Origin: Promethearchaeota archaeon | Lineage (GTDB): Archaea; Asgardarchaeota; Lokiarchaeia; Sigyniarchaeales; SOKP01 | NCBI GenBank assembly: GCA_048938025.1 | Contig: JBHLMP010000002.1 | Coordinates: forward strand, 32,001 to 96,000 | DNA length: 64,000 nucleotides | Direction: 5' to 3' | In this document: positions 36,625 through 56,538 of the stretch, in pieces | How positions within the stretch are numbered: the first letter of the stretch is position 1 | Layout: each line of letters opens with the position of its first letter | Notes under the pieces: model-generated | Database searches by the model: none | What the model saw: the letters and a program-made list of their open reading frames with translations, nothing else | What the model was told of the DNA's origin: nothing | Translations under genes and position numbers: made by a program

Positions 36625-37041
36625 TTATTCTCCTTGAATTTGAACGAAAACTCGTCTATTCCGAGGTCCATCATATTCAGCAAACATTATACCCTGCCAG
36701 GTCCCAAGCATTAATCTTTTCTTATGGATTAATAGTTCAATCGAATGCCCTGTAAGGGAACATTTAATGTGGGCATCAGAGTTTCCCTCTCTATGCTTAA
36801 AAGAGTAGCCTAATCCTCCACCATTCGGGATTAGTTTGCCTAAATAATTACTAATATCCTTTATTACCGAAGGATCTGCGTTTTCATTAATAGTTATACC
36901 AGCAGTAGTATGAGGGACAAAAACTCTACAAACTCCTTCTTCAACATTTGAATCTCTAAAAATCTTACGGATCTCATTTGTAATATCTAAAAGAATTTCT
37001 CTTTCTGGGGTTTTTATTCTAAATTCCTCAAATAATATCAT
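36625..37041 (-). CDS. yjbQ: YjbQ / UPF0047 family protein
   Basis: HTTAGITINENADP, GNSDAHIK and LGTWQ...EYDGPR motifs. Confidence 0.92.
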   Translation of the reverse strand: MILFEEFRIKTPEREILLDITNEIRKIFRDSNVEEGVCRVFVPHTTAGITINENADPSVIKDISNYLGKLIPNGGGLGYSFKHREGNSDAHIKCSLTGHSIELLIHKKRLMLGTWQGIMFAEYDGPRNRRVFVQIQGE

Positions 37042-37087: not shown

Positions 37088-37855
37088 CTAATCATTAAAA
37101 GAACCGTGTTTTCCTTTACCTCCTGTGAAAGCAATACTTCCTTTCAAATATTCACCACTCTCCAGAGTTTTTAATCCATATTCAAATTCATTACCCATAG
37201 CATCTTCTATATTTAGATTAAATTGCTCATAAGTGGATAGTCGATCATTTCTCATGCAAGTTTTTGGAAAAGCAGCTATTTCTCTTGCTAACTTCTCTGC
37301 TTCTTGTCTTGATTGCCCTTCCTCAACAATCTTATTGGCGAGACCCCATGAATATGCTTCTTCGGCTGTTATTGGGCGTCCAGTAAGAATCATATCCATA
37401 GCTCGACTTAATCCTATGAGTCGAGGTAAGCGTACAGTTCCTCCATCAACTAACGGGACACCAAATCTACGATTAAACACACCAAATATAGTATTCTTCT
37501 CAACAACGCGTATATCACACCATAATGCAAGTTCAAGACCACCAGCAACAGCATATCCTGCTACAGCGGCAATTACAGGTTTAGATAATCTCATCCTGGT
37601 AGGCCCCATAGGACCATCTCCTTCTTTCTCGATTAGATTTCCATAACCATCAACAATCGCTTTTAAATTAGCACCAGAACAAAAGGTTCCATTATCACCC
37701 CAAAGAATAGCTACTTCAGCTTTTTCATCCTTCTCAAATTCTCGAAATGCATCAGCGAGCGCTTTTGCTGTAGGACCATCTACTGCATTTTTAACTTTAG
37801 GATTATTTATAATAACCGTATATATAGGATATTTCCTTTCAATCATAACTACCAT
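37088..37855 (-). CDS. Crotonase / enoyl-CoA hydratase
   Basis: FCSGANL, GYAVAGGLELALWCD and GVPLVDGGTVRLPRLIG motifs. Confidence 0.92.
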   Translation of the reverse strand: MVVMIERKYPIYTVIINNPKVKNAVDGPTAKALADAFREFEKDEKAEVAILWGDNGTFCSGANLKAIVDGYGNLIEKEGDGPMGPTRMRLSKPVIAAVAGYAVAGGLELALWCDIRVVEKNTIFGVFNRRFGVPLVDGGTVRLPRLIGLSRAMDMILTGRPITAEEAYSWGLANKIVEEGQSRQEAEKLAREIAAFPKTCMRNDRLSTYEQFNLNIEDAMGNEFEYGLKTLESGEYLKGSIAFTGGKGKHGSFND

Positions 37856-38233: not shown

Positions 38234-39259
38234 ATGGTTATAAAAACCAATATAACTGAAATGTTAGGCATTAAACATCCTATAATTGCAGCACCAATGG
38301 GACCCTTTTACACAACAAAACTAACAATAGCTGTTTCTGAGGCCGGTGGTTTAGGTGTTTTAAGCCATATAACATTAAGTGAAGGAGTTACGTTAAACCA
38401 AATAAAAGAAAGTATGAAAACAGTAGTTGACTATACTGATAAGCCTTTTGGACTGAATATTAGAACAGCAACACTACAACCTGATGCGATAAAATTATGT
38501 AGACAAATTCCAAGATTTATAATGAATAATCCTAAAATCAAGGATCAATGTAATTATTTAATTACTAGCGCAGGATCTCCAAAATTATTATACAACAAGT
38601 ATTTTCAGGCATTGAAAGAATGTTCAAATATTAAGCATTTTCATGTAATACCTTCCTTAATGCTAGCTAAAAAAGTAATAAAGTATGGAGTTGATGGAGT
38701 GGTCGCAACTGGACATGAAGGTGGTGGTCATCAATCATATGAAAATACAAGCACATTAATTCTATTACAACAAATTAGAAAAGAATTACCAGAAGTTCCT
38801 GTGATTGCCTGTGGAGGGTATGCTACTGGAGAAGGATTAGCATCAGCTTTAGCGATGGGAGCTGGGGCTATTTCAATGGGAACAAGATTTATTGCATCAA
38901 AGGAATGTGAATTCCATGAAAATTATAAAAGTAAGGTCAAAAGTTCAACTGTATCTGATATTAAATTAGTTACAGGGGTTTTTGGACCTGCTCGAGTATT
39001 GAAGAATAGTTATACGGAAAACAGTACTACAGTTTCAAATAAAACAGAAAAAAGAGCTGAAGAAACATCAATCTCAGTTATAAGAGAGGATGTAATTAGA
39101 TTAGAAAAAGCCTATAAGGGAAATGTCGATGACGGTATTGTTCTTTTAGGACAGAGTTGTGGGTTGGTAGATGATATTAATAGTGTCTCAGACATTATTA
39201 ATTCAATTGTATATAATGCTGAGGAATGTTTAAAGAGTGCATACAACATGATAACATAA
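38234..39259 (+). CDS. Nitronate monooxygenase / FabK-like FMN oxidoreductase
   Basis: PIIAAPMG, AGGLG, GHEGGGH, PVIACGG, MGTRF and GQSCG motifs. Confidence 0.88.
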   Translation: MVIKTNITEMLGIKHPIIAAPMGPFYTTKLTIAVSEAGGLGVLSHITLSEGVTLNQIKESMKTVVDYTDKPFGLNIRTATLQPDAIKLCRQIPRFIMNNPKIKDQCNYLITSAGSPKLLYNKYFQALKECSNIKHFHVIPSLMLAKKVIKYGVDGVVATGHEGGGHQSYENTSTLILLQQIRKELPEVPVIACGGYATGEGLASALAMGAGAISMGTRFIASKECEFHENYKSKVKSSTVSDIKLVTGVFGPARVLKNSYTENSTTVSNKTEKRAEETSISVIREDVIRLEKAYKGNVDDGIVLLGQSCGLVDDINSVSDIINSIVYNAEECLKSAYNMIT

Positions 39260-39552: not shown

Positions 39553-40641
39553 TTATTTTTGATTTTTCAAATACTCATTCATTTCCACAAAACTACTCGT
39601 TCTTATTAATGCAGCTTTAAGAAATTGGAAACCAATATCATATGTCGATCCATCACCTCCGATATGAATAATCCAAGGAATTTCATGATCATATAGCCCT
39701 TTAGCTTTCATAATCTTTTTCGCAGTGGAGATAGCTTCAGCGACAGTAGCACCAGATTCAAATAAGTGGTGTACCCAAGGAACATTCCATGAGGTCACGT
39801 TATCTTTTGAAGTTGAGACCTCTGAACAACTAGTGTTATTCACATAAATTATGTTAGTATTAGCAACCGCAGTCGCAGCTGTTGCCATTTGATTTAATAC
39901 CATTCCGGCACCACAACCAGGACATAAACCATGACCTGGTTGTAGATGAGTTTGAGGCTGTAATTTCTTCCGATTAATTCTATAAACTTCAACAGGTTTC
40001 TCAGCACCGAAATTTTCTATTAATTTTTTCAGTTTATTATTTCTTTGTTCTGTTAGATAAATAATTTCATCAATCTCTTTTTCCATAAATTTAGGTTTAA
40101 ATAGATGCCTAAATTTGCCCATCGATTTAAGATACTCTACAAATTTTTCTTTATCAATATCTAATCCGCGATAATAGGTAAAAACAGGGACGCCATCTTC
40201 TACTCTGACTGTATAAAGCGGCCAATATCCACAATCAGTTGCCAATTTTGAGATTTTGAGAGTATCAGCAGCACCATGTCTCCACCCTCTCATACAATCC
40301 GAATATGCTTGAATGAAAGCAGATCCATCCGATTTAAGAGCGTCTGCTACCTTTCCCATAAAATCATTAGGATATGCTGGATTTACAGTAGCTAAGAAGA
40401 GCTTTATTGTCCCATAGAAAGCAAATGGGGTAACTAAATCTTGCTTGACACCTATTTTACCTGGGATCTTTTCTCCCGCAGGACCAGTCGTAGTGGAAGC
40501 ATAAGGTGGTGTAGCTCCACTTTCTTGAATTCCTGTATTCATAAAAGCTTCATTATCGTAGTTGAAAAATAGAACATTAGATTTTTCATTTCGGACTAAA
40601 ATATCCTCAAAATTAATTACATTCCTCTCTGGTTTTGACAT
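39553..40641 (-). CDS. porB: Pyruvate/2-oxoacid:ferredoxin oxidoreductase beta subunit, circularly permuted
   Basis: All PorB motifs are present but in permuted order: YDNEAFMNTG.Q.S..TP, SDC..GW, GYWPLY, then PGHGLCPGCG, TSCSEV, HLFE, GGDGSTYDIGFQ. Confidence 0.88.
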   Translation of the reverse strand: MSKPERNVINFEDILVRNEKSNVLFFNYDNEAFMNTGIQESGATPPYASTTTGPAGEKIPGKIGVKQDLVTPFAFYGTIKLFLATVNPAYPNDFMGKVADALKSDGSAFIQAYSDCMRGWRHGAADTLKISKLATDCGYWPLYTVRVEDGVPVFTYYRGLDIDKEKFVEYLKSMGKFRHLFKPKFMEKEIDEIIYLTEQRNNKLKKLIENFGAEKPVEVYRINRKKLQPQTHLQPGHGLCPGCGAGMVLNQMATAATAVANTNIIYVNNTSCSEVSTSKDNVTSWNVPWVHHLFESGATVAEAISTAKKIMKAKGLYDHEIPWIIHIGGDGSTYDIGFQFLKAALIRTSSFVEMNEYLKNQK

Positions 40642-40645
40642 TTTA

Positions 40646-41872
40646 TTAATCCACCCCGTATATTTTTTCTTTAGTTTCTCTCACTCCTAGATAATGATAT
40701 AGTTGTCCCTTCATGTCTGTAACAGCTTCCATTTTCTTTTTCGCTACATTAAACTCATCTCTCGTAACATCACGTCCACCTAAACCAACTATAAAACTTC
40801 TAAATAAAGTGCCTAGTGGATATAACGCAGAGGCAACAGACATTGAAAATGGTGGTAGCATCCCATTTAACGAGTCGCTTTTTTCTAATAGAATTAATTT
40901 TTCTATATTATGGTCTTCCACAATTTTTCGAAATTCTTCATATGGAAATGGTCGATATGCTCTTATTTTAATTAAACCGACATCCTTGTTTTTTGTCATC
41001 CAACTAATAATATTACCGCATACTGAGCCCATTGTACAAAAAGCAGTTTTTGAAGAGTTGTCTAAATTATAAGTTTCAATCAGATTATAGGCTCTTCCCG
41101 TTTCGGCTTCGAACTTTTTGAAGACATCAACCATTTGACCTAAAACTGGTTGTTTTGCTTCTTCCAACTGTGCTCTTCCTTCCATAAAATAAGAAGGAGT
41201 AACAATACCACCCCATGTACCGGGTTTTGAAGGATCAATTGTATGTCTTGGCTTTTTAGGGGTCATTTTTTTGACTCTTTCATCTGGAATTAGTGTTAGT
41301 TTCTGTACTGAATGAGATATTATAAAGCCATCATGTACAAATATAGTTGGAAATAATGAGTCTTCTGAGATCATAACAGAAATGATTGCAGCATCATAGG
41401 TCTCTTGAACATTTTCAGATACAATTATATTCCAACCAAGTTCAGAATTCGTTTGAGTATATTCCCAAGAATTCCAAATAGATAAATTCGGTGAATTAAA
41501 AGCCCGAGCAGAAATCATCATCGTTAAAGGCAATCTCCACCCTACAGCCATAGGAAGAGCTTCTGTCATCAATAAATAACCTTGACTTGCGGTAGCTGTA
41601 AAAGCTCTTGCTCCTGCTGCACAAGCAGCAGTTGAAAAACTTATTGCAGCTAATTCGGATTCTACATTTACAAATGCTGCTTTTAATCTTCCGTTATGAA
41701 CAACATCGGATAATCCTTCAACTGATTGGGTCTGAGGGGTGATAGGAAAGGCGCATATGACATCTGGATCAGTTTGAGTAACTCCCCCGGCAACTGCATA
41801 ATTTCCAATCATAGTAGTTACTATAGGTTCCTTAATTTCCTTAAAAAATATCCTCATCGGTTCTATTGACAT
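40646..41872 (-). CDS. porA: Pyruvate/2-oxoacid:ferredoxin oxidoreductase alpha subunit
   Basis: GNYAVA, AFPITPQT, ESE, TATASQG, DGFIISH, RPFP and GLGGRD motifs. Start placed at ATG 41872 after a GAGGTG SD. Confidence 0.92.
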   Translation of the reverse strand: MSIEPMRIFFKEIKEPIVTTMIGNYAVAGGVTQTDPDVICAFPITPQTQSVEGLSDVVHNGRLKAAFVNVESELAAISFSTAACAAGARAFTATASQGYLLMTEALPMAVGWRLPLTMMISARAFNSPNLSIWNSWEYTQTNSELGWNIIVSENVQETYDAAIISVMISEDSLFPTIFVHDGFIISHSVQKLTLIPDERVKKMTPKKPRHTIDPSKPGTWGGIVTPSYFMEGRAQLEEAKQPVLGQMVDVFKKFEAETGRAYNLIETYNLDNSSKTAFCTMGSVCGNIISWMTKNKDVGLIKIRAYRPFPYEEFRKIVEDHNIEKLILLEKSDSLNGMLPPFSMSVASALYPLGTLFRSFIVGLGGRDVTRDEFNVAKKKMEAVTDMKGQLYHYLGVRETKEKIYGVD

Positions 41873-41886
41873 TTTTTTCACCTCAT

Positions 41887-42905
41887 CTATTCTGGAGCGG
41901 CACAAGCTGCTGGTCCTTGTTTTAATCGTTTGCTAATAGCTTCAACAGGACAGATTTCTAAACAATTTTGGCATGATTTACAATGCGATTGATCAATACC
42001 TTTCATATGCCATAAACCATCCTCACCTTTTTCTCTAATAATAGCAAAATCAGGACAGATATACCAACATTGAGCACAATCAGTACATTTTTCTTCATCC
42101 CAAATCATATCCCATTCACCCCATGAACCAGTATTTACTTGCTTGCTACCTATCTCTATAACATCTTCATCGCAATACCACACACCAGCTTTATCTACTT
42201 CCTTATACCCCGGTAATCCTGGAAAAACTTGTTGCCAAGAAACTTTTGTATCTTCAGCAAAATTAATTGTAGGAGCATTTGAAGTCTCATATATACAAGT
42301 TTCTTCATAAGCTTTTTTTATAGCTGCTACATTTTTACCAGCGATTTCACCTTTAAACCGACGCAGTATTGCATCAGCTAAAGCATCCATAGAGAAGATT
42401 GGAACCACATGAATAAGTGCTCCTAAAATTATTGTATTAGTTATATTTCTGCCAAGAATTTCCATTGCAATATTTAATGCATCAATCGTTGCGATATTTA
42501 TATCTTTTCGACCAACAATATCTTGAATAGTCCTTTGATCCATGACAGTATTTACTATAAGCCATCCACCGGGAGCCAATCCTGCAGTAACATCTATTTC
42601 ACCAAGAAGAGAGGGATCTAATACTGCGACTGCATGTGGAGCATAAACTTGCTCATTGCTTCTTACTAAATCATCATTTGCACTTAAACGTACATAACTT
42701 TCAGTTGGAGATCCCATTCTTTCGGCTCCAAATAAGGGTTGACAAACACCATACCCGTAAAATGCTTCCACACACAGATTTGAGGCGGTCACTCCGCCTT
42801 GTCCTACGGGAGAGAGAGAAACTCTCAAATCTCTCCGCGGGCATGAAAGCGTAAATTTATAACATTCGATTTTAATATTTCTTTTAATTGTTCTGGAGTT
42901 AACAT
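41887..42905 (-). CDS. porC: POR gamma subunit fused to delta (2x4Fe-4S), interrupted by a 29-nt insert: join(42905..42833,42803..41887), 329 aa after removal
   Basis: Exon 1 is MLTPEQLKEILKSNVINLRFHARG. Exon 2 is GQGGVTASNL...FGAERMGSP...NTIILGAL...CTDCAQCWYICPD...CKSCQNCLEICP. Confidence 0.85.
42804..42832 (-). other. Candidate bulge-helix-bulge (relaxed HBh') mRNA intron, 29 nt
   Basis: Sequence AGAUUUGAGAGUUUCUCUCUCUCCCGUAG. Central helix GCGG/CCGU, both junctions fall after the second bulge base (AG|A, AG|G), internal GA+GAGAG/CUCUC+UC stem. Removal restores the frame and the RGGQG motif. Confidence 0.6.
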
Positions 42906-51105: not shown

Positions 51106-53469
51106 CTACTTTAAAGCTATTTTACTTACTTGCGAGACTAACTCGGCAAATTTTTTTCCTTCTGCGGCAGAGATCCATGCAATGACAAATCTCTCATCAG
51201 AAATATTATTTTTCTTCATCCAGCTTCTAATTTTTTTTTCACGTTTTATGGCAAAATCATTTCCAGAAATATAATGACAATCTTGTGGATGACATCCTGT
51301 CAACATAACAGCTCCAGCTCCGCGTTTAAAACAATGTTTAATAAAAGAAATATCTACTCGTCCTGAACACATAGTTCTAACAATTCTCGTATTAGTTGGA
51401 TATTGGATTCGACTTGTTCCAGCCAAATCAGCTCCAGCATAGGAACACCAATTACAAGCAAAAATCAATACTTTTTCCGAAGCATTTTCACGAAGAGCTA
51501 TATCAATTTGTCTGAGGATCATTGCATCTGTAAAATTTGTCATGGTAATAGCATCTGTAGGGCAATCTGCTGCACATGTTCCACAACCTTTACATAACAC
51601 TGGAATAATTCGTGCAGGTGTTTTTTTTTCTCGATCAACACTAATAGCACCGTAAGGACAACGAGATACACAGGTTCCACAACTAGTGCACTTAAACGTA
51701 TCCACAAATGCATATAAAGGCTCTACATGGAATTCTTCTTCTGAAAGTAAATTCCCACAGCGCCCTGCTGCAGCACTAGCTTGTGTAACAGTTTCCCTAA
51801 TATCCTTTGGTGATTCTGCTCCACCAGCAATGAAAATACCATCAGTTGGGGTATCTACTGGTCGAAGTTTAGGATGTGCTTCTATATAAAATCCTTTTGA
51901 ATCCTTAGCAATAGGAAAGGGAATAGATTCTGATGAACCTTCAACTCCTATAGAAAGGACTACTAAATCAAATTCTTCAGAGAGAATTGTTCCAGTGCTT
52001 ATATTTTCAACATTAACAATAAGATTCTTAGTGATGGGATTTTCTTTAATTTGACCAGGGCGCCCTCGTATAAAAAGAACACTTTCTTCTCTTGACCGTG
52101 AATAAAGTTCCTCAAATCCTTTACCAAAAGCCCTAATATCAATAAAGAATATTGTAACCTCAACATCAGGCCAGTGTTCTTTAATTAAAAGGCTATCCTT
52201 TATACTTTCCATACAACAGAAGTTAGAACAGTATGGATTAAATCGCTTATCACGCGATCCTACACAATTAATAAAAGCAACTTTTTTTGGCTGCTTAAGA
52301 TCACTGGGACGTACAAGTTCTCCATTTGTTGGTCCTGCCGCATTAATTAACCTTTCAAATTCAAAGGTTGTTATAACGTTGGAATAATGACCCCATCCAT
52401 ATTCTGGGAGTTTAGAGGCATCAAAAAGTTCAAAACCTACTGCGATGATAATGGCTCCAACTTTATAATTAAAAGTTTTTTCGGAATCCTCATAATTTAT
52501 GGCTTCTTTTTCACATTCAGGAACACATTTTCCACAGGCTAAAGGAGAGAGACCTAAACAGCTCTTTTCATCAATAATATAACAAGCTGGTACTGCTTGT
52601 GGATATGGGATATATATTGCTTTCCTCCAACCTAAGTTGCCAGAATATTCATCAACAACATTTTCAGGGCAGATTGAGACACAATCCCCGCATGCGGTAC
52701 AGAGGTTTTCATCTACATAGCGAGGGTATTTTTTAATTGTGACCTCAAAATTACCAATGTATCCAGATATATTTATAACTTCAGCACAGGAAATTAAATT
52801 AATATTTTCATGATTACCTACATCAGCCATTTTGGGACCTAAAATACAGATCGAACAATCCATTGTTGGAAATGTTTTATCGATGAGAGCCATCCTTCCT
52901 CCAATAGTAGGTGCTTTTTCAACAAGAATAACTTCAAATTCATCAGCTAAATCTAACGCAGCTTGAATTCCTGCTACTCCTCCTCCAATGATTAAGACTC
53001 TTCGTGTAATGGGAACTATGATATCATCAATTGCTTCTAATAACTCAGCTTTTGCGATAGCCATTTCAAGAATTTCTTTAGCTTTTTTAGTCGCTTCTTC
53101 TTTCTCTGAAAGATGTACCCAGCTACATTGTTCTCGGATATTAGCTACTTCTACAAGCGAAGGATTTATTCCAACTCGGTTTAGAAGTTTTTTCCATGTT
53201 GGACCATGTAATCTCGGGGAACATGCTGCTACAACTATCTTCTCTATACCTTGCTCGTTAATTGCTGTTTCGATTTCTACTTGCCCAGGATCAGAACAAG
53301 TATATGTATTAACTTGAACAAGTTTGACTCTTGTATCTTCTTCAATTTCTTTAGCTAATTGATCAATATCAACAGTTCCACCAATATTTTTACCGCATTT
53401 ACATAGGAAAACCCCAATGTTTGGTTCACTTTCAGGTTTGTCATCACTTTCAGTCATATATTCAATCAC
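51106..53469 (-). CDS. hdrA: Heterodisulfide reductase subunit A fused to C-terminal MvhD [2Fe-2S] domain
   Basis: FLCKCGKNI, AACSP, NIREQCSW, GGGVAG, KTFPTMDCSIC, CVGSR, YCSNFCC and HPKLRP motifs. MvhD part is FACNWCSYAGAD, MCSGR, GCHPQDCHY, WISAAEG. True start may be ATG 53457. Confidence 0.92.
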   Translation of the reverse strand: MIEYMTESDDKPESEPNIGVFLCKCGKNIGGTVDIDQLAKEIEEDTRVKLVQVNTYTCSDPGQVEIETAINEQGIEKIVVAACSPRLHGPTWKKLLNRVGINPSLVEVANIREQCSWVHLSEKEEATKKAKEILEMAIAKAELLEAIDDIIVPITRRVLIIGGGVAGIQAALDLADEFEVILVEKAPTIGGRMALIDKTFPTMDCSICILGPKMADVGNHENINLISCAEVINISGYIGNFEVTIKKYPRYVDENLCTACGDCVSICPENVVDEYSGNLGWRKAIYIPYPQAVPACYIIDEKSCLGLSPLACGKCVPECEKEAINYEDSEKTFNYKVGAIIIAVGFELFDASKLPEYGWGHYSNVITTFEFERLINAAGPTNGELVRPSDLKQPKKVAFINCVGSRDKRFNPYCSNFCCMESIKDSLLIKEHWPDVEVTIFFIDIRAFGKGFEELYSRSREESVLFIRGRPGQIKENPITKNLIVNVENISTGTILSEEFDLVVLSIGVEGSSESIPFPIAKDSKGFYIEAHPKLRPVDTPTDGIFIAGGAESPKDIRETVTQASAAAGRCGNLLSEEEFHVEPLYAFVDTFKCTSCGTCVSRCPYGAISVDREKKTPARIIPVLCKGCGTCAADCPTDAITMTNFTDAMILRQIDIALRENASEKVLIFACNWCSYAGADLAGTSRIQYPTNTRIVRTMCSGRVDISFIKHCFKRGAGAVMLTGCHPQDCHYISGNDFAIKREKKIRSWMKKNNISDERFVIAWISAAEGKKFAELVSQVSKIALK

Positions 53470-54346
53470 TATCTTTAATTAATTTACCAATTTTCTTATT
53501 TTGCGCTTTAATTCGAAGTTGCTCTATGTTTTTGCTAAATCCTTCTCGCTCCTCTTCAACAAATTCCCCACATATAATAATTCCTTTCTTGAAATCAAAA
53601 GTTGCTTGATGAGGGGGCCAATCAACTTTAATCCTAATTTGCTTTTTTAACCATTCTAGCATCTCTACAGCATCGCCTAATCTATTTTTTGACCCATATT
53701 GGACAAAACAAGGAGCTAGTACTTCTATAAAACTGAATCCTTGATTGTCTATGCATTTAAAAATACTTTTTTGTAATCTAAGGGTGTCGTATCCAGGCCA
53801 TCTAGCGACATATGTAGCTCCTGCAGCTGCTGCTAGACTTACCAAATTGAAGGGAGGTTCCACATTCCCATATGGTGTTGTTGAAGTGATGTCGCCAATC
53901 TGACTTGTAGGGGCCACTTGTCCTCCAGTCATGCCATATATATTGTTATTTATACAGAGAACAGTTATCTCTACATTTCTTCTAGCAGCATGGATAAAAT
54001 GATTCCCTCCTATTGCAAAGAGATCTCCATCTCCCGACAAAACAATAACCTTTAATTTAGGATTTGCTAATTTTATACCCGTCGCAAAGGGTATAGCTCT
54101 CCCATGTGTAGTATGGAAAGCAGGTGCTTTAAAACAGCCACTAGATCGACCTGTACATCCTATGCCGGATACAATAGCATAATCTTTAGATGTGAGGCCT
54201 CTTTCTTTTAGACAGCTTGTAATTGATGTAATTACTGTTCCAATTAAACAGCCAGGACAAAAAATGAAACGATGTAAATTTAACATATCAATTAAGGGAT
54301 GACCAAGTGCTTCAGTAGGGATTGATATTTGATCTGATGGACTCAT
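53462..54346 (-). CDS. korB: 2-oxoacid:ferredoxin oxidoreductase beta subunit (canonical order)
   Basis: CPGC, SGIGC, HGRAIP, GDGD, NNNIYGMTGGQ and EVLAPC motifs. Confidence 0.92.
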   Translation of the reverse strand: MSPSDQISIPTEALGHPLIDMLNLHRFIFCPGCLIGTVITSITSCLKERGLTSKDYAIVSGIGCTGRSSGCFKAPAFHTTHGRAIPFATGIKLANPKLKVIVLSGDGDLFAIGGNHFIHAARRNVEITVLCINNNIYGMTGGQVAPTSQIGDITSTTPYGNVEPPFNLVSLAAAAGATYVARWPGYDTLRLQKSIFKCIDNQGFSFIEVLAPCFVQYGSKNRLGDAVEMLEWLKKQIRIKVDWPPHQATFDFKKGIIICGEFVEEEREGFSKNIEQLRIKAQNKKIGKLIKDSD

Positions 54347-54349
54347 ATT

Positions 54350-55495
54350 TTAAACCTCCTTCATCAATTTCTCATAAATAAATTTAGGACTAAAAGGTAT
54401 GGTAGTAGGAATTGTAATACCAGAAACCGTAAACAAATGCCGAAATCTCTGGACTTCTCTAATTATCATCCCATTGTTCATTTCACAAACAATAACCTTT
54501 GAAGCCCCCATTTGCCCAATTCTTTCCATTAATTCATCAGGAAAGGGCCATAGACTTTTTAATCGTACTAGTCCTACCTTATATCCTTTTTGGCGTGCTT
54601 GCTCAACGACTTCTGGTACCCCTCTTGCATTAATTCCATAAGCTAAGATAACGATATTAGCATCATCTAAATGCTTTTCCTCCCAATCATTAATTTGAGG
54701 TCTTGCTTTCCTAATTTTTTCACAAAGCCGCTTAATGAGAACTTCTGCCGCCTCCGGCGTCATTTCTGGATTACCCTCTATATCATGAGTTAAACCTGTG
54801 ACATAAAAAGAATAGTTGGTTCCTGCAATTGCCATTCCAGGTACAAGATCATCATCAAAAGCTTCAAAAGGTTTATATTTCTCAGGTGGAACTTGGGGTT
54901 TCTTACGCTCTACCAATTCAATATTTGAATGTATATTAACAACTTCCATCATTTGTCCTAAAATTCCGTCTGAAGCGACAACTACCGGTATACGATATTT
55001 CTCAGATAAATTAAATGCACGTATGGTTAAATCGTACATTTCTTGAACTGTAGATGGAGCTAAAACAATTATTTCATAATCTCCATGAGAAGCATATCTC
55101 GTTTGATATATATCAGACTGAGATGCATTTGTAGGTTGTCCTGTACTAGGACCTCCTCTCATTATGGTGACGATAACTGCTGGTGCTTCTAACATCACGC
55201 CCAAACCTATACTTTCAGCCATAAGTGAAAAACCTGGTCCTGAAGTTGCTGTCATAGCTTTCATTCCAGCATAAGAAGCTCCAAAACAGCTTGTGATTGA
55301 AGCCAACTCATCTTCCATTTGAACAAATGTTCCATTAACTTGAGGAAGACGTCTTGACATATAAGCAGCAATTTCTGAGGATGGTGTGATAGGATACCCC
55401 GCAAAATATAAACATCCTGCGGTAATCGCACCTTCTGCACATGCATAATTTCCAGTAGTTAATATTCTCTTTTCTTGGAAGCTTGTCTTACTCAT
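54350..55495 (-). CDS. korA: 2-oxoacid:ferredoxin oxidoreductase alpha subunit
   Basis: GYPITPSSE, QMEDE, TATSGPGFSLM, RGGPSTG and EMN motifs. Confidence 0.93.
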   Translation of the reverse strand: MSKTSFQEKRILTTGNYACAEGAITAGCLYFAGYPITPSSEIAAYMSRRLPQVNGTFVQMEDELASITSCFGASYAGMKAMTATSGPGFSLMAESIGLGVMLEAPAVIVTIMRGGPSTGQPTNASQSDIYQTRYASHGDYEIIVLAPSTVQEMYDLTIRAFNLSEKYRIPVVVASDGILGQMMEVVNIHSNIELVERKKPQVPPEKYKPFEAFDDDLVPGMAIAGTNYSFYVTGLTHDIEGNPEMTPEAAEVLIKRLCEKIRKARPQINDWEEKHLDDANIVILAYGINARGVPEVVEQARQKGYKVGLVRLKSLWPFPDELMERIGQMGASKVIVCEMNNGMIIREVQRFRHLFTVSGITIPTTIPFSPKFIYEKLMKEV

Positions 55496-55775
55496 TGTTT
55501 ATAACCTCCTTAATTTCTGTTTCCAAAATATATAATGAAACTGTAGGACATAACCGTTCACATTGTCTACATCCTGCACACTCTTCAGATTTAACCACGA
55601 TTGCATAGTGGAGCATGCGACTATTGAACTTATCTTCACTTATTTCGATTATATCTTTTGGACAAAATGTCAAACATAATTCGCAACCATCGCATTGTTC
55701 AGAATCTATTAATATTTCATATTTTTTCTCAGGGGAAGGAGGTGGTAAAATGGGAGTTCGTTTAGACTTTAACAT
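55488..55775 (-). CDS. korD: 2x[4Fe-4S] ferredoxin (delta subunit)
   Basis: CDGCELCLTFCP and CAGCRQCERLCP. Confidence 0.88.
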   Translation of the reverse strand: MLKSKRTPILPPPSPEKKYEILIDSEQCDGCELCLTFCPKDIIEISEDKFNSRMLHYAIVVKSEECAGCRQCERLCPTVSLYILETEIKEVINNE

Positions 55776-55965
55776 TTTTTAATCCTCTAGTATACATACA
55801 CTTCTGACTATATTTTTTTCTCTTATGCTTTAAAATAATAGTTACTCTTTTAAATTTGCTTTTTCATAGTATAAGTAATTCATTAAATAGCGCTTTCTTT
55901 TATGAAATTACCTTGACGAGAAATAAAAAGTTAAATCTAATAAGGTTTTATTAAAGAAATACAAT

Positions 55966-56538
55966 TTATTGGGATTTATTTACATATTCCTTATAGAGAG
56001 CTTGGCCAAGTTGATAACTTTGAATATTGATGGCTCTAAACCGTTCTGGCATACTATTTAAAACTTGGTCATAATACTTTTCTTTTAAATCAATTTTTCC
56101 ATTCTCTTTAAGATATTGAGAGAGGAATCCTAAACAAAGAATATTCGCGCTCTTAGGCATTTTATTTTCATCAGCTCGTCTTGTAATTGGAACACGGTGG
56201 ATTTTACCTTTCTGGATGATTTCTTCGGCATTAGCAATTGTATGTTCATCGATAAAGGAGACTGTTTTTTCATATATACATTCAGAGGCGCGTTCGAATC
56301 CTTTTTGATCTATGGCAATAAATATGTCTGCATCTTTATCGCAGAATGGGTATGATATGGGAGCAGAGTCTAGAATAACATCACAAAAAATAGGACCACC
56401 TCTAACTGAAGGTGTATAGTCAACTGTGAGTGTCACATAATAATTAGCAGCCATTGCAACTCGAACTAATACACTTCCTAAAAATTTGATACCTTGGCCT
56501 CCTCTACCAGAAAATCTTATTTTTAATTTTTCATTCAT
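55966..56538 (-). CDS. korC: 2-oxoacid:ferredoxin oxidoreductase gamma subunit
   Basis: IRFSGRGGQG, YTPSVRGG and NILCLG motifs. Confidence 0.88.
   Translation of the reverse strand: MNEKLKIRFSGRGGQGIKFLGSVLVRVAMAANYYVTLTVDYTPSVRGGPIFCDVILDSAPISYPFCDKDADIFIAIDQKGFERASECIYEKTVSFIDEHTIANAEEIIQKGKIHRVPITRRADENKMPKSANILCLGFLSQYLKENGKIDLKEKYYDQVLNSMPERFRAINIQSYQLGQALYKEYVNKSQ

Follow-up and report, generated by a model that had tools for sequence, protein, structure and literature searches.

A circularly permuted beta subunit of a 2-oxoacid:ferredoxin oxidoreductase in Asgard archaea

Layout of the permuted porB gene

The stretch of DNA analysed here, referred to as the window, covers 64,000 nucleotides of a Promethearchaeota archaeon (assembly GCA_048938025.1, contig JBHLMP010000002.1, positions 32,001 to 96,000). 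Its minus strand carries a set of genes for a 2-oxoacid:ferredoxin oxidoreductase (OFOR) in the order porCD, porA, porB (Table 1). The last of them, porB, encodes a PorB-type beta subunit in which the two halves of the protein stand in swapped order, and it is a real, conserved and clade-specific circular permutant of the OFOR beta subunit. Four nucleotides separate the porA stop codon (40646-40648) from the porB ATG (40639-40641). An ATG at 41872 opens porA, and the reading frame is open back to a TTG at 41905.

Table 1. Located features of the permuted porB gene, its operon and other genes of the window
Feature	Position	Strand	Remarks
Circularly permuted PorB-type OFOR beta subunit, 362 aa	39553..40641	-	ATG start; two homology stretches in swapped order; 29 homologues, 54-88% identity
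N-terminal extension, new (aa 1-19)	40585..40641	-	outside the PorB profile alignment; model: strand E7-10, helix H11-15
Canonical C-terminal half of PorB (aa 20-208)	40018..40584	-	strand and DNE..NTG, fourth cluster Cys C116, WPLY, C-terminal helix; profile positions 121-298, 140.6 bits
YDNEAFMNTG (aa 28-37), second half of the GDG-X-N ThDP/Mg motif	40531..40560	-	
True linker (about aa 209-224), canonical C-terminus to canonical N-terminus	39970..40017	-	gap between the two profile alignments
Canonical N-terminal half of PorB (aa 225-347)	39601..39969	-	PGHGLCPGCG, CSEV, HHLFE, GGDG and the next helix; profile positions 6-125, 104.7 bits
GDG (aa 329-331), first half of the ThDP/Mg motif	39649..39657	-	now 32 residues from the C-terminus
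C-terminal extension, new (aa 348-362), and stop codon	39553..39600	-	prolongs the post-GDG helix (model H337-354)
porCD, fused gamma-delta subunit, 313 aa	41887..42828	-	POR domain 90.3 bits and two 4Fe-4S motifs (Fer4 families); PorC 9-177, PorD 228-301, OOR delta 36-299
porA, alpha subunit (domains I and II), 408 aa	40646..41872	-	POR_N 186.8 bits, PFOR_II 47 bits; PorA_Arch 307.6 bits (cut-off 550)
Shine-Dalgarno-like GGGGTGG	40651..40657	-	within the porA end, 10-16 nt upstream of the porB ATG; read from the sequence
YjbQ-family gene (presumed)	36625..37041		flank of the operon
Enoyl-CoA hydratase gene (presumed)	37088..37855		flank of the operon
NMO-family gene	38234..39259		flank of the operon
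Second OFOR and HdrA2-like gene, whole block	51106..56538	-	
KOR-type gamma	55966..56538	-	
KOR-type alpha	54350..55495	-	
KOR-type beta	53462..54346	-	normal order
HdrA2-like gene	51106..53469	-	NF040770 1053 bits (cut-off 1100)

From the N-terminus, the motifs of the protein follow one another as YDNEAFMNTG (residues 28-37), SDCMRGW (114-120), WPLYT (140-144), FGAEKPVEVYRINRKKLQ (212-229), PGHGLCPGCG (235-244), CSEV (272-275), HHLFE (291-295) and GGDGSTYDIGFQFLKAALIR (328-347), after which 15 residues remain. The swapped arrangement, running from the DNEAFMNTG half to the GDG half, had been proposed in an earlier, sequence-only reading of the window, and all of its checkable details are correct, down to the exact position of PGHGLCPGCG (nt 39910-39939). 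Comparison with all PDB chains by phmmer gave two separate stretches on PorB of Methanosarcina acetivorans (9bt4_C): residues 226-347 match 9bt4_C 3-115 (i-Evalue 4.5e-18) and residues 23-193 match 9bt4_C 119-282 (i-Evalue 1.4e-25). Because both stretches reach such values separately, the swapped order of the PorB halves is far beyond chance. The beta subunit of the Moorella oxalate oxidoreductase (OOR), 5c4i_C, likewise matches in two swapped stretches.

The earlier reading had proposed to align each half separately to PorB models, and a profile was built here from 49 normal-order PorBs. Its positions 121-298 fall on residues 20-208 and its positions 6-125 on residues 225-352, with 140.6 and 104.7 bits. 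This alignment shows that the canonical C-terminal helix and the canonical N-terminus are nearly complete, so that the linker is confined to about residues 209-224. A linker does exist, as had been claimed, but most of the stretch originally assigned to it is ordinary PorB C-terminal helix and N-terminus. The NCBIfam PorB model NF008819 matches the protein in two stretches with 205.3 bits and its cut-off of 405 is not reached; Pfam TPP_enzyme_C passes barely (23.5 against a cut-off of 21.9), and neither stretch passes alone.

The rearrangement concerns the motif that binds Mg and thiamine diphosphate (ThDP). DNE stands at residues 29-31 and GDG at 329-331, and a contiguous GDG-X(about 26-28)-N is absent from the linear protein. 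The chain has been opened between the helix after GDG and the strand running into DNE, where normal PorBs have a short '..ERGHD..' loop in the profile consensus. The statement that the cut splits the ThDP-binding motif is therefore right for the sequence, but the cut itself is in a helix-to-strand loop between the motif halves. In doubly wound alpha/beta domains, helix-to-strand loops are on the side of the sheet that faces away from the cofactor. For this reason, the cut should be far from Mg-ThDP in space, although it splits the motif in sequence.

Conservation and selection

Conservation was examined in 29 permuted members with 54-88% identity. N27, Y28, D29, N30, E31, A32, N35, T36 and G37, which form the NYDNEA..NTG.Q block, are invariant in 29/29, and so are G329, D330 and G331, the cysteines C116, C240, C243 and C272, and E274. 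Aligned to 9bt4_C, the four cysteines coincide with those of the proximal [4Fe-4S] cluster, which bears out the claim that all four are kept. The linker region has conserved positions of its own: L207, Y220 and Q230 are invariant, and P216 is nearly so.

The ratio of nonsynonymous to synonymous substitution rates (dN/dS) of the whole gene is 0.02-0.07 against 13 relatives, and both cores remain at or below 0.10 in the 13 pairs. Values are 0.07-0.20 for the linker (wider window of residues 194-232; computable in 8 of 13 pairs) and 0.05-0.34 for the N-terminal extension (slightly longer window of residues 1-22). By these estimates, porB is under strong purifying selection. The low dN/dS and the invariant cofactor residues support a functional role for the permuted protein, and the earlier description of the gene as a functional natural permutant rather than debris gains support from the same data.

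Predicted structure and the alpha-beta complex

An AlphaFold2 monomer of the permuted protein, predicted from a 29-row alignment, has a mean predicted local distance difference test score (pLDDT) of 74.2 and a predicted template modelling score (pTM) of 0.82. The model places a strand at residues 323-329 leading into GDG, a helix at 337-354 that extends towards the C-terminus, a strand at 21-29 leading into DNE, and a long helix at 187-211 before the linker. The best Foldseek match of this model is again 9bt4_C (E 6.6e-08, TMq 0.39). VIA-align comparison with the beta subunits or domain VI of pyruvate:ferredoxin oxidoreductases (PFORs) and OORs gave Z scores of 9.6-11.3 and root-mean-square deviations of 3.2-4.6 over 166-179 aligned residues.

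The modelled PorA-PorB complex reaches an interaction prediction score from aligned errors (ipSAE) of 0.86, compared with 0.00 for the best control. At least 98% of contacts are common to the three runs, and the pLDDT of the partners is at least 84. In the benchmark of the ipSAE mark, 58/80 solved complexes and 2/110 mismatched pairs reached it. Confident PorA contacts fall on PorB residues 262-358 and include 347, 351, 355 and 357-358 of the new C-terminal helix. The modelling supports binding of the permuted PorB to PorA.

Distribution and assembly checks

A word-indexed search of 5.8 billion clusters gave 240 matches. The 120 matches listed derive from NCBI, JGI, ENA and Logan assemblies and have 55-89% identity, mostly full coverage and a length of about 360 residues, and 108 of these 120 clusters have the permuted order. 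All 26 NCBI-named homologues among them are called 'hypothetical protein'. In addition, 1.84 billion representatives at 50% identity were read with HMMER, which gave 1346 matches. Among the best 150 of these 1346, only P0121 (53% identity, 365 residues), P0122 (a 257-residue fragment) and a few short fragments are collinear with the permuted porB. The others of the best 150 have at most 52% identity (full-length proteins at most 45%), match mostly in two stretches, and have the normal order wherever both motifs were found. Over the 270 proteins collected, the motif order is permuted in 110 (the 108 clusters plus P0121 and P0122) and normal in 88, while 72 lack one motif or are fragments.

A search of Asgard genomes for the permuted order, which the earlier reading had suggested as a check, found it across the class to which the window belongs. 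In a survey of 400 genomes of the phylum, with a strong match defined as E<1e-100, full-length collinear porB matches (51-96% identity) are confined to this class, save for one genome (G075). The window's own family (f1) has a strong match in 106/134 genomes; the corresponding counts for the other families are 1/1 (f2), 12/14 (f3), 4/4 (f4), 1/3 (f5), 2/2 (f6) and 2/2 (f7). With the exception of G075, the 239 genomes of other classes give half-length matches to normal PorBs only (E 1e-13 to 1e-39). The G075 copy is on a 2.8-kb contig that carries the whole operon (L047, G075:C23:1-2799). This contig is 80-89% identical to the window, and the contamination of its bin is 8%. It is therefore probably a binning contaminant, with a recent transfer as the less likely alternative. 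The NCBI labels of the homologues include Promethearchaeota, Lokiarchaeota and Helarchaeota, and the NCBI class Promethearchaeia comprises Promethearchaeales and Helarchaeales. One Thorarchaeota and one Hermodarchaeota metagenome-assembled genome also carry homologues (83-85% identity); both labels are unconfirmed.

Misassembly had been named as a reading that could overturn the permutation, and it is not borne out by independent assemblies or by contigs from other studies. The permuted porB is present in the closed single-contig genomes G135, G138, G143, G189 and G279. The linker is spanned by public-run contigs from two further studies (X4 record 13, 39920-40248; X5 record 21, 39781-40165). 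An exact contig (X1 record 3) crosses the porA/porB junction, and X1 may be the source sample.

Operon context

The porCD-porA-porB set is complete and collinear in 28/31 loci, and porA adjoins porB in 30/31. The incomplete loci are one at a contig end (L030), one with no porCD at E 1e-20 (L026) and one with porB alone (L027, in G279). In the closed genome G279 (contig C1), the permuted porB (L027, about 1.50 Mb) is about 540 kb from its cognate porA (L049, about 2.05 Mb; 61% identity), and the operon is broken up. Three relatives of 99-100% completeness that are without the permuted porB (G179, G200 and G267) are also without the cognate porA, and their best porA matches are 34-37% identical. 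In G207, the cognate porA is present at a contig end.

Phylogeny and origin of the permutation

The tree contains 65 rows: 16 permuted proteins in rotated form, 39 of the 150 representatives, 8 PorBs of other Asgard classes and the 2 normal-order PorBs of the source genome. The 39 representatives were restricted to stand-alone, normal-order proteins of 270-350 residues whose first motif precedes residue 45; proteins that are fused, carry an intein or are fragments were excluded. The permuted proteins form one clade with a Shimodaira-Hasegawa-like approximate likelihood ratio (SH-aLRT) support of 100, a stem of 1.37 changes per column and short inner branches. From this we infer a single origin of the permutation.

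The clade groups, with unresolved branching, with PorBs from the other classes of Asgard archaea. These relatives belong to porC, porD, porA, porB operons in which gamma and delta are separate, and their PorAs are 31-37% identical to that of the window. Since the nearest relatives have separate gamma and delta genes and such distant PorAs, the whole enzyme is a divergent lineage and not a recent copy. The nearest normal-order operons of other Asgard classes (L037, L038, L044 and L046) have gamma and delta separate, whereas the two are fused in the operon with permuted porB; L040 and L045 contain a second operon, in which gamma and delta are fused.

Traces of the route to the permutation were sought in the protein and its relatives. 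The two stretches overlap on the PorB profile at positions 121-125 in the window protein and at 111-121 or 113-121 in P0114 and P0113; trimming a tandem duplicate would be expected to leave a small overlap of this kind. The terminal extensions were considered as relics of a duplication because, by eye, the N-terminal one is like the post-GDG helix and the C-terminal one like the strand with DNE. The PorB profile lends this likeness no support, as the scores of the extensions are no better than those of shuffled sequences in 13/13 members. Out of 200 shuffles per protein, 20-144 score at least as high as the real N-terminal extension and 27-115 at least as high as the real C-terminal one. No protein with a doubled motif, as expected for a tandem beta-beta fusion, and no split intermediate was found among the 270 collected proteins, the best 150 of the 1346 representatives included. 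Five proteins with the C-terminal half only (P0177, P0220, P0228, P0236 and P0254) resemble truncated gene calls or intein-related pieces.

Several normal-order PorB homologues (P0126, P0133, P0148, P0150, P0159, P0165, P0172 and P0218) contain LAGLIDADG inteins at two sites within the interval from GDG to DNE. One site directly follows GDG. The other falls within the strand that immediately precedes CYDNE, and only a few residues separate it from the chain cut of the permutant. It is a matter of speculation that a split intein at the CYDNE-proximal site could have seeded a fission of porB.

Substrate

In PFOR of D. africanus, the Thr of PITP, the Arg of (T/S)ARA, the Ile of LSI and the Asn of NTG take part in the substrate pocket. 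Aligned to 9bt4_B, 7plm_A and 1b0p_A, the window PorA keeps T45 (Thr of PITP), R123 (Arg of SARA) and I132 (Ile of LSIW), together with E73, the Glu of the S-E pair. These four residues are invariant in 21/21 cognate PorAs, and N35 of PorB (the Asn of NTG) is invariant in the 29 permuted members. The pocket does not fix the substrate, because OFORs for other small 2-oxoacids may share these residues. Pyruvate or another small 2-oxoacid would be the likeliest substrate, although this assignment is weaker than that of the enzyme family.

Interpretation and alternative explanations

Taken together, the data are best explained by a functional circularly permuted OFOR beta subunit with a single origin in the window's class, kept by purifying selection in an accessory operon; we put the probability of this explanation as a whole at about 0.85. 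The protein would be the beta subunit that binds ThDP and [4Fe-4S] (PP domain, domain VI) in an OFOR of three subunits, namely a gamma-delta fusion, alpha and beta. About 16 linker residues connect the canonical C- and N-termini of the chain, whose new ends are found in the loop that links the post-GDG helix to the strand into DNE..NTG. Judging from the conservation of the fold, folding would bring both motif halves together so that Mg-ThDP is held against the PorA PYR domain, and electrons would leave via the beta cluster and then two delta clusters to ferredoxin. The permutation would have a single origin that lies close to, or at, the root of the window's class (Promethearchaeota, Lokiarchaeota and Helarchaeota in NCBI names), and porB would since have been kept under strong purifying selection in an operon gained or lost as a unit. 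Catalytic activity of the permuted PorB is very probable.

Several observations weigh against this explanation. The cofactor loops (residues 31-68, 235-239 and 272-293) have a pLDDT below 50 in the monomer model, and the Foldseek and VIA-align matches cover only about half of it; both aligners are sequential and can be expected to cover only half of a permutant. The score of the complex may reflect memory, because similar OFOR complexes have been solved (9bt4, 5c4i), and the alignments used were built by the authors. A strong match is missing from 28/134 genomes of the window's own family, which makes the gene dispensable, and some of these cases are assembly gaps (G207 and G257, at contig ends). 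One or two in-frame stops (TGA, TAA or TAG) interrupt the porB match in G123, G159, G163, G273 and G274; pseudogenisation, sequencing error or a split alignment may be the cause. The one metatranscriptome (X20) gave three short, partly fitting contigs only and no evidence of expression. The substrate assignment rests on few residues and on NCBIfam scores below their cut-offs, and it is weakened by the source genome itself, which has two normal-order POR/VOR-type alpha-beta loci besides the permuted one and eight POR_N genes overall.

An artefact of assembly or binning, in which two fragments of a normal porB were wrongly put together, might be suspected of a window that comes from a draft genome of 88 contigs with 5.14% contamination. 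However, the permuted order recurs in four data sources and in closed single-contig genomes, contigs of other studies run across the linker, and the linker has conserved residues of its own, so that the chance of such an error is negligible. A decaying or non-catalytic paralogue, that is, a rearranged remnant with a structural or regulatory role but no ThDP chemistry, deserves more thought. It would fit the failure to reach the NCBIfam PorB cut-off, the presence of other OFORs in the genome, the absence of the operon from some complete relatives and the in-frame stops mentioned above. Nevertheless, it is hard to reconcile with the low dN/dS and with the invariance of every Mg/ThDP and cluster residue over the range of identities covered; moreover, the cognate PorA retains the ThDP-activating Glu and the substrate residues, and the subunit set of the operon is complete. 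We regard it as quite improbable.

More room has to be left for a functional permuted OFOR whose substrate is not pyruvate, for instance a branched-chain, aromatic or other 2-oxoacid, or one that performs oxalate-like chemistry. The NCBIfam scores of porB for OOR beta (181 bits) and VOR beta (168 bits) are close to that for PorB (205), the gamma-delta fusion is OOR-like (OOR delta, 79.5 bits), and the two normal-order loci of the genome could cover pyruvate. On the other side stand the Thr that PorA has in PITP, where oxalate oxidoreductase has Arg (PIRP), the preference of PorA for the archaeal PorA model over OOR alpha (307.6 against 143 bits) and the lack of conserved neighbours in distant loci that would point to a pathway: nothing is common to the ten flanking open reading frames of five distant loci. 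A substrate other than pyruvate is thus a possibility to be kept in mind, though the less favoured one.

Comparison with known systems

The closest known relative is the beta subunit of the four-subunit PFOR of M. acetivorans (9bt4 chain C), which is the best match of the permuted porB in both sequence (E 1.1e-46) and fold. The two proteins have the ThDP/Mg motif residues and the four cluster cysteines in common, and the paired PorA matches at 193 bits. They differ in that the halves of the permuted porB are swapped, with extensions of about 19 and 15 residues and a linker of about 16, and in that gamma and delta are fused in the window operon. The Moorella thermoacetica OOR (5c4i, 5exd, 5exe) shares the three-gene set with a fused gamma-delta; its delta model NF045790 matches porCD residues 36-299. 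In contrast, the OOR beta subunit has the normal order, and OOR alpha has Arg where the window PorA and PFORs have Thr.

Rearranged chains are known from other ThDP enzymes. One study describes families that differ in domain order, PP-PYR-x versus PYR-x-PP (bioRxiv 10.1101/2021.03.21.436335). As in porB, the order is rearranged and the cofactor site is left intact; unlike in porB, where the cut falls within the PP domain and separates the GDG half from the N half, whole domains were moved in the cases covered there. The split-gene transketolase of Carboxydothermus hydrogenoformans is reported to be a natural active ThDP enzyme with unusual chain connectivity (PMC7661550); it is a fission into two chains, whereas porB is a permutation. 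That the permuted order might already be a described family had been another reservation of the sequence-only reading. No description of an intradomain permutation of an OFOR beta subunit was found in the full-text literature searched (subscription journals and supplements were outside its scope), only the domain-order permutation of ThDP enzymes, and the naming of the homologues agrees with this.

Significance

In its widest form, the proposal is that porB represents the first case found in nature of a circular permutation within the PP domain of a ThDP enzyme, with the GDG and N halves at opposite chain ends; that it arose once in the ancestor of Promethearchaeia/Lokiarchaeia-type Asgard archaea; that the enzyme forms a fully active and distinct OFOR subclass with the new C-terminal helix in the alpha-beta interface; and that, with the gene being missed by profile-based annotation, the capacity of these genomes for pyruvate/2-oxoacid oxidation has been undercounted. 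We favour this combination by a small margin over its failing in some part.

For decades the GDG-X-N motif has been regarded as a single contiguous signature, yet in nature it can be divided between the two chain ends. The permuted porB is a natural template for the design of permuted or split OFORs, and it marks a permissive site in the PP fold. Since the homologues carry the name 'hypothetical protein' and the window protein scores at half the cut-off of the PorB equivalog, metabolic reconstructions based on models of this type will overlook an entire OFOR in the majority of genomes of the window's family (106/134). Such reconstructions feed scenarios of syntrophy and eukaryogenesis that rely on ferredoxin-reducing 2-oxoacid oxidation. 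With its single origin, the permutation is also a clean rare genomic change that marks the window's class.

Other genes of the window

The operon is flanked by what we take to be a YjbQ-family gene and an enoyl-CoA hydratase gene, both named from a reading of their translations, and by an NMO-family gene; these recur beside the operon in close relatives only. The window also contains a second OFOR, a KOR-type gamma, alpha and beta set in normal order. Its beta gene overlaps by 8 nt with the next gene, which is HdrA2-like, and this arrangement hints at an OFOR coupled to a heterodisulfide-reductase-type flavoprotein.

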